This document shows, piece by piece, positions 43,674 through 45,180 of a stretch of DNA of 64,000 nucleotides. The DNA is from an uncultured delta proteobacterium (GTDB lineage Bacteria > Desulfobacterota > WTBG01 > CAIYCZ01 > CAIRTM01), in contig CAWDSQ010000030.1 of NCBI GenBank assembly GCA_963804955.1, forward strand, positions 128,001-192,000, written 5' to 3'. Numbering within the stretch: position 1 is the first letter of the stretch; every line of letters starts with the position of its first letter. The position numbers were made by a program, and so were the translations under genes. Below the pieces are notes generated by a model. The model had not been told where the DNA came from. It was given only the letters and a program-made list of their open reading frames with translations, and did no database searches.

Positions 43674-43717
43674 TATCTATTAAATCGCTAGAGCAACTAG
43701 ATTAAAGGTAATCAAAA

Positions 43718-43771
43718 ATGTATCGCAAGATTTTAAAAATGTACATGTGTAGTTTTGTTGATAGTGGATAA
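43718..43771 (+). CDS. Putative leader peptide [17 protein letters not shown]
   Basis: AAGG RBS-like site at about 43705; ATG 43718 to TAA 43771; Met-Tyr-Met-Cys codon cluster; upstream of a terminator and metY. Confidence 0.65.
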
Positions 43772-43803
43772 CCCGGTTATGCTCACAGGAGCTGAAGAAG
43801 TGC

Positions 43804-43848
43804 AGGCCACTATCCTATAATTGCATACGGATAGTGGCCTTTTTTTTT
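43804..43848 (+). terminator. Intrinsic terminator (attenuator) in the metY leader
   Basis: Perfect 12-bp stem aggccactatcc (43804-43815) / ggatagtggcct (43829-43840) followed by T8. Confidence 0.9.
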
Positions 43849-43884
43849 ACCTACAGAATTCAAACAAAGAAAGCGAGGAACTCA

Positions 43885-45180
43885 ATGGCCTATAAAAATC
43901 TGGAAACTATTGCGCTGCATGGCGGGCAGACGCCCGACCCGACAACCGGTTCGCGCGCCGTGCCGATTTATCAGACAACCTCATATGTATTTAAGGATAC
44001 CGAGCATGCGGCAAATCTGTTTGCCCTGAAAGAATTCGGCAATATCTATACACGGCTTATGAACCCGACTACCGATGTGTTTGAGCAGCGCATCGCCCAG
44101 ATTGAAGGCGGCACTGGCGCTCTGGCGGTTGCAAGCGGCCAGGCAGCGGAAGCATTCGCGCTTCTTGCCATAACCCGGCCGGGAGATGAGATCGTGGCCG
44201 GCAATAATCTGTACGGCGGAACGTATCAGCTGCTGCACTACACCTTTCCCAAGCTCGGACGGACGGCAAAGTTTGTGGAATCGACAAAGCCGGAGGAATT
44301 CAAAAAAGCGATAACAGATAAGACGCGGGCGATTTATGTCGAGACCATCGGCAACCCGAAGCTTGATGTGCCTGATTTTGAAGCAATAGCCGCTATTGCC
44401 CATGAGGCGGGCTTGCCGCTTGTGGTTGATAATACGGTCGGGGTGGGGCTTGTGCGGCCTATTGATCACGGCGCTGATATTGTTGTGGCATCAGCTACGA
44501 AGTTTATCGGCGGGCATGGCACCTCCCTTGGCGGCGTTATTGTGGATTCGGGCAAATTTGACTGGAGCAATGGAAAATTCCCCGAGTTTACCGAGCCCGA
44601 CCCCAGCTACCACGGCCTTGTCTTCTGGGATGCTCTCGGCAATCATCCGGCGCTCGGGAATGTGGCCTTTATTTTGAAAGTGCGGGTGCAGCTGCTGCGC
44701 GATCTCGGGGCTGCGATCAGCCCGTTTAACTCCTTCCAGCTGCTGCAGGGCCTGGAAACGCTGCCCCTGCGGCAGCAGCGGCACTGCGAGAATGCTCTGG
44801 CTGTTGCGCGGTATCTGAAAAAGCACCCGCTGGTCGGGTGGGTGAATTATCCGGGGCTGGAAGACAGCCCCAATCACCGGGTGGCTTCAAAATATCTGAA
44901 AAAAGGCTATGGCGCCCTTGTGGGCTTCGGGATCAAGGGCGGACGTGAAGCAGGCAAAAAGTTTATCAACTCGGTTGAGCTGCTGTCGCATCTGGCAAAT
45001 ATCGGCGATGCGAAAACGCTGGTCATTCATCCGGCCTCGACGACCCATCAGCAGCTGACCCCGCAGGAGCAGCAGGCAACGGGCGTGACCGATGATTTCA
45101 TCCGCCTGTCGGTAGGGCTTGAGCATATCGACGATATCATTGCGGATATCGAACAGGCGCTGCAAAAGACCGCTGTTTGA
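43885..45180 (+). CDS. metY: O-acetylhomoserine aminocarboxypropyltransferase (sulfhydrylase)
   Basis: [55 protein letters not shown]. Confidence 0.95.

Follow-up and report, generated by a model that had tools for sequence, protein, structure and literature searches.

Upstream of the methionine biosynthesis genes metY, metX and metW of an uncultured delta proteobacterium lies a short leader that combines a 17-codon open reading frame (ORF), an intrinsic terminator and a third strand able to pair with the terminator's 5' arm. We studied it in a window of 64,000 nucleotides (nt), the whole stretch of DNA that was analyzed (contig CAWDSQ010000030.1, positions 128,001 to 192,000 of the forward strand, GenBank assembly GCA_963804955.1); all positions below are those of the window unless another contig or locus is named. 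The genome, here called G000, is a 36-contig metagenome-assembled genome that is 87% complete. With a probability of roughly 65%, we read the element as a minimal, three-strand transcription attenuator of the trp type, mediated by the ribosome and responsive to Met-tRNA and Cys-tRNA. This reading draws on an exact complementarity within the leader, on the conservation of its parts in a congener and on the recurrence of the same design upstream of metY in other lineages.

Leader anatomy and predicted folding

The whole element measures about 170 nt, with three sensing codons and an 8-bp antiterminator, and is made up of the following parts:

43669-43674, + strand: -10 box TATAAT, assigned by sequence reading, by a promoter scan of the congener G003 and by alignment of G000 with G003
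43705-43708, + strand: Shine-Dalgarno-like AAGG, 9 nt 5' of the leader ATG, in an A-rich context and kept in G003
43718-43771, + strand: leader ORF of 17 codons (ATG at 43718, TAA at 43769-71)
43739-43750, + strand: putative sensing codons ATG-TAC-ATG-TGT (Met8, 43739-41; Tyr9; Met10, 43745-47; Cys11, 43748-50)
43760-43767, + strand: antiterminator strand GATAGTGG, in leader codons 15 to 17, ending 1 nt before the stop codon
43804-43815, + strand: terminator 5' arm AGGCCACTATCC, which contains the shared strand CCACTATC (43807-14)
43816-43828, + strand: terminator loop TATAATTGCATAC, 13 nt, which varies in sequence and length between congeners
43829-43840, + strand: terminator 3' arm GGATAGTGGCCT, forming 12 pairs with the 5' arm and followed by a T-run to 43848

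An earlier sequence-only reading of the window had proposed a leader-peptide attenuator at this site. On inspection, the ORF, its ribosome-binding-site-like sequence and the ATG-TAC-ATG-TGT cluster all lie where that reading had put them. The complementarity on which it depended is exact: GATAGTGG (43760-67) is the reverse complement of CCACTATC (43807-14) over all 8 nt and is a copy of 8 nt from the terminator 3' arm. The terminator is also as described, a perfect 12-bp stem whose T-run counts as T9, or as T8 if T43840 is assigned to the stem, with 36 nt between the end of the run (43848) and the metY ATG (43885). The leader's 5' untranslated region follows the -10 box and is about 36 nt long. 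The ribosome-binding site of metY itself, GAGG, is as short as the AAGG of the leader and lies outside the hairpin. An automated terminator scan missed the hairpin, solely because it allowed loops of 3 to 8 nt and the loop here has 13. We also considered a promoter inside the terminator loop (TATAAT, 43816-21) and rejected it on its poor -35 match and on the different loop in G003.

The anatomy is unlikely to have arisen by chance. In 5,000 dinucleotide shuffles of positions 43682-43800, a stretch of 8 nt or more with perfect complementarity to the terminator 5' arm occurred 44 times, and a closed ATG ORF of 10 to 40 codons with at least three Met/Cys in four consecutive codons occurred 14 times. 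The two features appeared together in none of the 5,000 shuffles.

Folding of the nascent RNA was modeled from a presumed transcription start at 43682 up to 43828. The ribosome was assumed to shield roughly 18 nt on the 5' side of the first base in the A site and 13 nt on its 3' side, a footprint taken from general knowledge. When no ribosome was placed on the RNA, the antiterminator 43760-67/43807-14 formed, and it also formed with the A site at Met10. With the A site at Cys11, six of the eight antiterminator pairs were retained, and with the footprint at the stop codon the antiterminator could not form. In these models, the leader would thus behave in the way that the sequence-only reading had proposed, with a stalled ribosome leaving the strand free and a terminating one masking it. 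Taken as isolated helices, the terminator (-21.3 kcal/mol) is far more stable than the 8-bp antiterminator (-8.6 kcal/mol). The terminator is therefore the stable state of the whole leader, and we infer that the choice between the two structures must be kinetic, as it is in the trp attenuator.

In the mechanism that we propose, transcription would start a few bases after the -10 box, and the 17-codon leader would be translated while it is being made. If both Met-tRNA and Cys-tRNA are charged, the ribosome would reach the stop codon at 43769 and cover GATAGTGG. The 12-bp hairpin (43804-15/43829-40) and its U-run could then form, and RNA polymerase would stop 36 nt before metY. If the supply is short, the ribosome would stall with Met8, Met10 or Cys11 in its A site, which places GATAGTGG 11 to 21 nt further 3', either at the ribosome's edge or past it. 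Once CCACUAUC has been made, the free GATAGTGG would pair with it and hold the terminator 5' arm, and the polymerase would continue into metY-metX-metW. Stalling at the internal AUG codons would amount to a readout of the charging of elongator Met-tRNA, and the Cys codon would add a signal for the supply of cysteine and sulfide. The predicted sensing of Cys fits the first gene of the operon, because metY makes homocysteine from O-acetylhomoserine and sulfide.

The folds contained one further pairing. The stretch UGUGUAGUU at Met10-Cys11 (43746-43754) can pair with AAUUGCAUA in the terminator loop (43819-43827) through nine pairs, three of them G-U, and this helix extends the antiterminator when the ribosome is absent. 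In G003, only five such pairs are possible, and the extension is probably incidental.

Conservation in congeners and state of the assembly

The full leader is present in one congener (G003, of the same genus), with 82% identity including gaps. There it stands directly behind a promoter, TTGACA-16-TAAAAT, that a promoter scan scored with 11 of 12 consensus matches. In G003, the terminator lies between promoter and gene, which makes the element an attenuator by position. The ORFs of the two genomes are 96% identical, with two substitutions in 54 nt and no insertion or deletion (indel): one substitution changes Tyr2 to Cys, and the other (TAC to TAT, at Tyr9) is synonymous. The start and stop codons, Met8, Met10 and Cys11 are all retained, as is the AAGG. 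No differences were found in the antiterminator strand or in either terminator arm. The 32-nt linker between the ORF and the terminator has diverged, with 5 gap columns, and so has the terminator loop, both in sequence and in length. A hairpin in the linker of G000 is absent from G003.

A second congener (G004) carries the terminator at a contig end, as GGGCCACTATCC, a 10-nt loop, GGATATGTGGC and T6, with the ORF part cut off. This terminator precedes a DUF2292 gene, a DUF3034 gene and metY (locus L005, 3868-4059 and 2826-3734, minus strand). Parts of the leader are also matched, at a likeness of at least 80%, by contigs from three other metagenome runs. Two of these contigs, from two different runs, span the ORF, and neither has an indel in it; all indels listed for the metagenome contigs fall elsewhere, namely at 43714, in the linker or the loop, or within or after the T-run. 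Searched at the DNA level, 40 relatives and 21 genomes of the order yielded the leader in G003 only, and the 160 metY loci that we collected from genomes and metagenomes held no further copy of the terminator arms or the ORF. A 35-nt match in another genome (G014) covers only the 3' arm and the T-run and was taken as chance.

The genes that flank the leader are the following:

43293-43673, + strand: cysN fragment, the first 126 residues only, adjoining the leader (partial NCBIfam matches)
43885-45180, + strand: metY, O-acetylhomoserine sulfhydrylase (homocysteine synthase; TIGR01326, 676 bits against a cut-off of 495)
45119-46416, + strand: metX, homoserine O-acetyltransferase, in three reading frames (profile positions 47-220 and 227-374 in two ORFs)
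46462-47022, + strand: metW (TIGR02081, 218 bits against a cut-off of 189.5)

The gene names given by the sequence-only reading hold, in that NCBIfam supports metY and metW and matches metX in pieces. The cysN fragment covers positions 3-119 of the 406 in profile TIGR02034 and 21-146 of the 475 in NF003478 (both NCBIfam). Together with cysD it occupies 42188-43673, a segment that is 92 to 93% identical to a second cysD-cysN pair on contig C19 (44612-46085). For the cysN fragment (92%), this identity stops at 43666, and homology to G003 begins at 43669. The junction at 43666/67 takes the place of the -35 region of the met promoter. What remains there is TGCGGA, which matches the consensus at two of six positions, so that in the G000 assembly the perfect -10 box (TATAAT) is kept and the -35 box is lost. 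No contig from four compared DNA sequencing runs, whose contigs come from relatives, bridges 43666/67: cysN-like contigs stop at 43663-67, and leader-like contigs start at 43668-72. The runs listed as containing this stretch included none of RNA. Either a genuine rearrangement or a chimera made in assembly may account for the join between cysN and the leader.

Reading frames are broken in several places. Within 40784-47022 of the window, the sulfite reductase gene, cysD, metX and the gene of an Rrf2-family regulator are each read in several frames. In G003, metX and metW are also broken by indels, at positions other than those in G000. Because the indels of G003 sit elsewhere in the same genes, the frameshifts in both genomes are likely assembly errors and not marks of pseudogenes. 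Judged from these alignments, single-base assembly errors are the most likely explanation of the broken genes around the leader.

It could be argued from this that the leader is an artifact or a product of chance: the assembly is prone to errors, the join may be chimeric, and an ORF may by coincidence lie beside an ordinary terminator. The cysN fragment is joined at a point that stays unbridged in four runs, a copy of cysD-cysN with 92 to 93% identity exists on another contig, and metX, cysD and other genes carry frameshifts. However, G003 has the complete leader, -10 box through metY, downstream of a proper promoter, and the leader also occurs in contigs of other runs. It is therefore independent of the cysN join. 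The shuffles, none of which combined the two features, also speak against a fortuitous origin, and we consider this explanation very improbable.

Met/Cys-rich leaders at other metY loci

To place the element among other metY genes, we scored the 133 of the 160 collected loci that had at least 400 nt of upstream sequence. The score was the maximum number of Met/Cys in eight codons within ATG ORFs of 6 to 50 codons, and the reverse complement of each region served as the control. ORFs with at least four Met/Cys in eight codons (scores of 4 to 8) were found in 18 of the 133 sense regions and in none of the 133 reverse complements, where no score exceeded 3. Two pairs of these leaders are duplicates (L057 and L159, L106 and L131), which leaves 16 distinct ones. 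The record titles of the loci name Syntrophales, Syntrophaceae, Desulfomonilia, "delta proteobacterium," Kiritimatiellae, Lentimicrobiaceae and Flavobacterium.

One of the genomes, G018, belongs to the same order as G000 and has MTGNNNTMMCSMCMCMCTFGGRWVFLCK, followed by a terminator, a DUF2292 gene and metY. Support for the attenuator reading thus extends beyond the window to richer Met/Cys leaders that carry the same device before metY in other lineages, including one within the order. By its sequence, the same attenuator appears to drive different gene sets in close relatives. The small DUF2292 (YezD-like) gene stands between terminator and metY both in G018 (locus L020, 1213-1398) and in G004.

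The likeness extends to the arrangement of the parts. A hairpin with a T-run follows every leader inspected; the automated finder overlooked the one at L116, whose loop is too long. In a geometry test of 19 leaders, we sought the best complement of the terminator 5' arm between the last Met/Cys codon and the arm itself. In all 19, this complement ends no more than 12 nt after the stop codon, and its start lies 3 to 30 nt past the last Met/Cys codon, with a median of 11 nt that is also the value in G000. Pairing with a leader's own arm is stronger than pairing with the arms of other leaders (means of -12.4 and -9.2 kcal/mol across the 19 unaligned leaders), and for the antiterminator strands of G000 and G003 the own arm ranks first of 19.

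The leaders also differ. Those at other metY loci have 23 to 42 codons, with four to eight Met/Cys in eight codons, compared to 17 codons and three Met/Cys in G000. Common to all are the location about 100 to 250 nt before metY, the terminator and the antiterminator strand in the 3' end of the ORF. The core of the G000 terminator, CCACT, is similar to the AACCCACT arms found in the leaders of Syntrophales and delta proteobacteria. With a score of 3, both G000 and G003 lie below the operational class threshold of at least four Met/Cys in eight codons. As far as the sequences tell, the G000 leader shares the geometry of the class and not its codon richness, a likeness of design rather than demonstrated homology.

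Seven of the leaders (L103, L113, L114, L116, L117, L135 and L154) end in a near-identical block, with the peptide G-R/M-G-G-P-P/S-M/V-stop and DNA close to GGGAGGTCCGCCCATGTAA. The block is far more conserved than the remainder of these ORFs. It probably matters as RNA, in an antiterminator or some other pairing, and not as a peptide motif.

Upstream of the metY genes closest to that of the window (80 to 84% identical; record titles name Verrucomicrobiota and relatives), both the terminator and the Met/Cys ORF are lacking; the loci of these genes include L033-L035, L089, L108, L121, L122 and L182. Leader-bearing loci have metY genes that are 75 to 81% identical to the window's, so the leader does not track the metY tree closely. 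In G012 (locus L006), a member of the family whose metY is 75% identical, a strong promoter (TTGACA-17-TATAAT) and a 9-codon ORF (MNLSTKMNR) lie 350 to 270 nt before metY; a Met/Cys cluster, a T-run terminator and an Rfam match are all absent upstream of this metY. Within G000 itself, 476 short ORFs have at least four Met/Cys in eight codons, and six of them have a terminator within 160 nt. The two best of these six (on contigs C20 and C11) were dropped, as no gene on the same strand lies behind them.

The terminator and its alternative pairing could belong to a real attenuator that is switched by something other than a ribosome, such as a small S-adenosylmethionine (SAM), S-adenosylhomocysteine (SAH) or methionine riboswitch within the leader of about 120 nt, or an RNA-binding protein. 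The ORF would then be incidental. This explanation gains from the fact that met genes are commonly controlled by riboswitches, from the modest ORF, with three sensing codons and a 4-nt Shine-Dalgarno match, and from a constraint on the ORF that, with two sequences, is inseparable from their overall identity of 94%. Searches for known families did not favor it. Rfam gave no match in the whole window at gathering score, and for 43550-43950, at E values up to 10, only three matches to unrelated small RNA or long noncoding RNA families, with E values of at least 1.1. Nothing relevant was found in 15 related loci, including those of the congeners. These results agree with the sequence-only reading, which had recognized neither a SAM riboswitch nor a T-box. 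No SAM-I riboswitch was found in the 87% complete G000 genome, where the control search was positive in 3 of 14 known genomes; searches of the genome for SAM-II and SAH families also gave no match and are uninformative, since the control genomes gave none either. Moreover, beyond the antiterminator and the terminator we saw no conserved structure, the linker hairpin of G000 being lost in G003. The reading frame is free of indels in G003 and in two metagenome contigs whereas its flanks contain them, and Met/Cys-rich ORFs recur in the same place in 18 of 133 metY leaders against 0 of 133 antisense regions. A switch of this other kind is therefore unlikely, and the translating ribosome remains our preferred sensor.

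Several observations weigh against a ribosome-mediated attenuator. In the assembly as it stands, the cysN fragment replaces the -35 box through an unbridged join, and single-base indels are many. The Shine-Dalgarno match is merely AAGG. The sensing codons number only three (two Met and one Cys), and a score of 3 is not enriched at metY, being found in 8 of 133 sense and 4 of 133 antisense upstream regions. Homologues are few, with one other genome among 21 in the order and one among 40 relatives. The sequence-only reading had looked to related genomes for a conserved leader ORF with covarying pairing; the ORF and its Met/Cys codons are indeed kept in G003, but covariation was not seen, and the stems are identical in G000, G003 and G004. 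As the metY DNA of G000 and G003 is 93.6% identical over 1,527 nt, this invariance could reflect a short divergence, and conservation of the 54-nt ORF alone is weak evidence. In addition, the assumed footprint of a ribosome at Cys11 extends over the first 2 nt of the antiterminator strand. Folds from 43682 contained no 1:2 protector hairpin 3' of the predicted start. Without this hairpin, an untranslated leader should be read through, and repression would need efficient translation of the leader. Protector hairpins are not universal among leader-peptide attenuators. A trp-like 1:2 hairpin (43674-82/43759-70), the only pairing of this kind, reaches 5' of the predicted start and is absent from the folds from 43682; unless transcripts enter from the cysDN fragment, it can be set aside.

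Relation to known systems and a candidate promoter operator

Methionine biosynthesis is, in the textbook view, controlled by SAM riboswitches, by T-boxes or by the repressors MetJ, MetR and SahR, and Met is missing from the amino acids for which leader-peptide attenuation is taught (Trp, His, Phe, Thr, Leu and Ile/Val). The G000 leader resembles the classical attenuators (trpL, hisL, pheL, thrL, leuL and ilv) in its short ORF between the promoter and the first gene, in the clustering of the product's codons near the end of that ORF, in the intrinsic terminator and in an alternative strand for the 5' arm that would be covered by a terminating ribosome and freed by a stalled one. With its two or three sensing codons, the leader comes nearest to trpL among them. 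Unlike these systems, the leader would sense Met and Cys, has three strands and no 1:2 protector hairpin, carries its antiterminator strand within the ORF, just ahead of the stop codon, and occurs in a lineage of uncultured anaerobes, not in Proteobacteria. Premature termination in a met leader, relieved when the end product is scarce, is a trait it would have in common with SAM riboswitches and Met T-boxes. Its proposed sensor, however, is a translating ribosome that reads charged tRNA and not a ligand-binding RNA fold.

Leaders that sense cysteine have been reported or predicted elsewhere. The accessible part of Canestrari et al. (bioRxiv 10.1101/834739), which summarizes the classical leader-peptide attenuators with reference to Turnbough (2019) and Yanofsky (1981), describes mycobacterial polycysteine small ORFs (the "Cys ribulon") that are leaderless, have consecutive Cys codons and lack an intrinsic terminator. 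According to the same text, they act on translation by unmasking a downstream Shine-Dalgarno site, and attenuation mediated by upstream ORFs had not previously been described for cysteine. A ribosome pause at sulfur amino acid codons that releases downstream sulfur genes is common to that system, as presented there, and to the one proposed here. The G000 leader differs from it, on the same account, in its 5' untranslated region with an own ribosome-binding site, its single Cys codon mixed with Met codons, its canonical terminator and the free ribosome-binding site of metY. In Actinobacteria, Seliverstov et al. (2005; PMC1262725) predicted leader peptides with Cys codons before cys and cbs operons; in the sections available, they report no terminator hairpins for these leaders, propose Rho dependence and find no RNA regulatory structure before methionine operons. 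Those leaders, as described there, share with ours the short ORF, the sulfur codons near the stop codon and the place before sulfur amino acid genes, and differ in that a full terminator and antiterminator are present here, before metY. The available portion of Naville and Gautheret (2010; PMC2965389) lists no Met leader. Full-text literature searches found no description of a leader-peptide attenuator for methionine or metY; subscription journals were mostly outside their coverage, so this is not proof of absence. Literature on the control of methionine genes by SahR added nothing. In this reading, the element is a known principle, leader-peptide attenuation, applied to Met and Cys in minimal form, of which we found no published description.

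If this holds both here and at the other metY loci (18 of 133), more amino acids would be sensed by ribosomes in this way than are now listed, and the charging of elongator Met-tRNA would gain a role as a signal for regulation. A function would also emerge for the unannotated mini-ORFs that precede sulfur genes in uncultured anaerobes, Bacteroidota and other groups. The G000 leader would be a very small and readily synthesized test case.

A second possible control site lies directly after the -10 box:

43676-43692, + strand: candidate operator TCTATTAAATCGCTAGA (TCTA-N9-TAGA), then CTAGATTAAAGG, found by pattern search

A TAGATTRAA-type block extends the candidate site to 43706 (43676-43706). 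The pattern TCTAT-N4-22-TAGATTRAA has six matches in the G000 genome, and its reversed control has none. One match is in the promoter of an operon with cysK, an aprA-like gene, sulfite reductase, cysD and cysN (37707-36), with a duplicate on contig C29 (433-62). Another is in the promoter of the Rrf2-family (IscR/CymR-like) gene just after metW (47111-31), which is itself followed by a second cysK; the family assignment has 88 bits against a cut-off of 73. From these sites, TCTA-N9-TAGA looks like the operator of a CymR/IscR-like repressor with a candidate sulfur amino acid regulon. Such an operator would explain the conservation of 43675-43712. It suggests that a transcription factor at the promoter adds a second layer of control, which was absent from the sequence-only reading.

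Control might even lie with this factor alone, the Rrf2 repressor binding TCTA-N9-TAGA and the hairpin serving as a constitutive partial terminator or as an insulator against upstream transcription, with no role for the ORF. The recurrence of the site type after the -10 boxes of the cysK operon and the Rrf2 gene, the six matches against zero, the Rrf2 assignment and the conservation around the site are all in keeping with this. It nevertheless leaves unexplained why a copy of 8 nt from the terminator 3' arm stands at the end of a conserved ORF (a combination seen in none of the shuffles) and why Met/Cys ORFs with the same geometry recur elsewhere. The operator is also a low-information candidate motif, and the two mechanisms are compatible, which makes an added layer likelier than a replacement. 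We regard control by the factor alone as quite unlikely and retain the ribosome-mediated attenuator.

More tentatively, and at somewhat less than even odds, the 17-codon ORF may be the minimal form of a widespread type of metY leader, in which Met-tRNA/Cys-tRNA attenuators replace SAM riboswitches in many phyla. In G000, it would be stacked on an Rrf2 operator shared with the cysK and sulfate assimilation promoters. The supply of sulfur would in that case be gauged at two stages, first by a transcription factor when transcription initiates and again by the ribosome during elongation.

Further matches to the pattern lie on contig C7 of G000. The one at 183743-64 is promoter proximal, before MvhD-like and formate dehydrogenase genes, and the one at 418779-813 is ambiguous. 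Similar sites also follow -10 boxes in both congeners, in G003 before an mnmA-like gene (named from its first residues only) and in G004.

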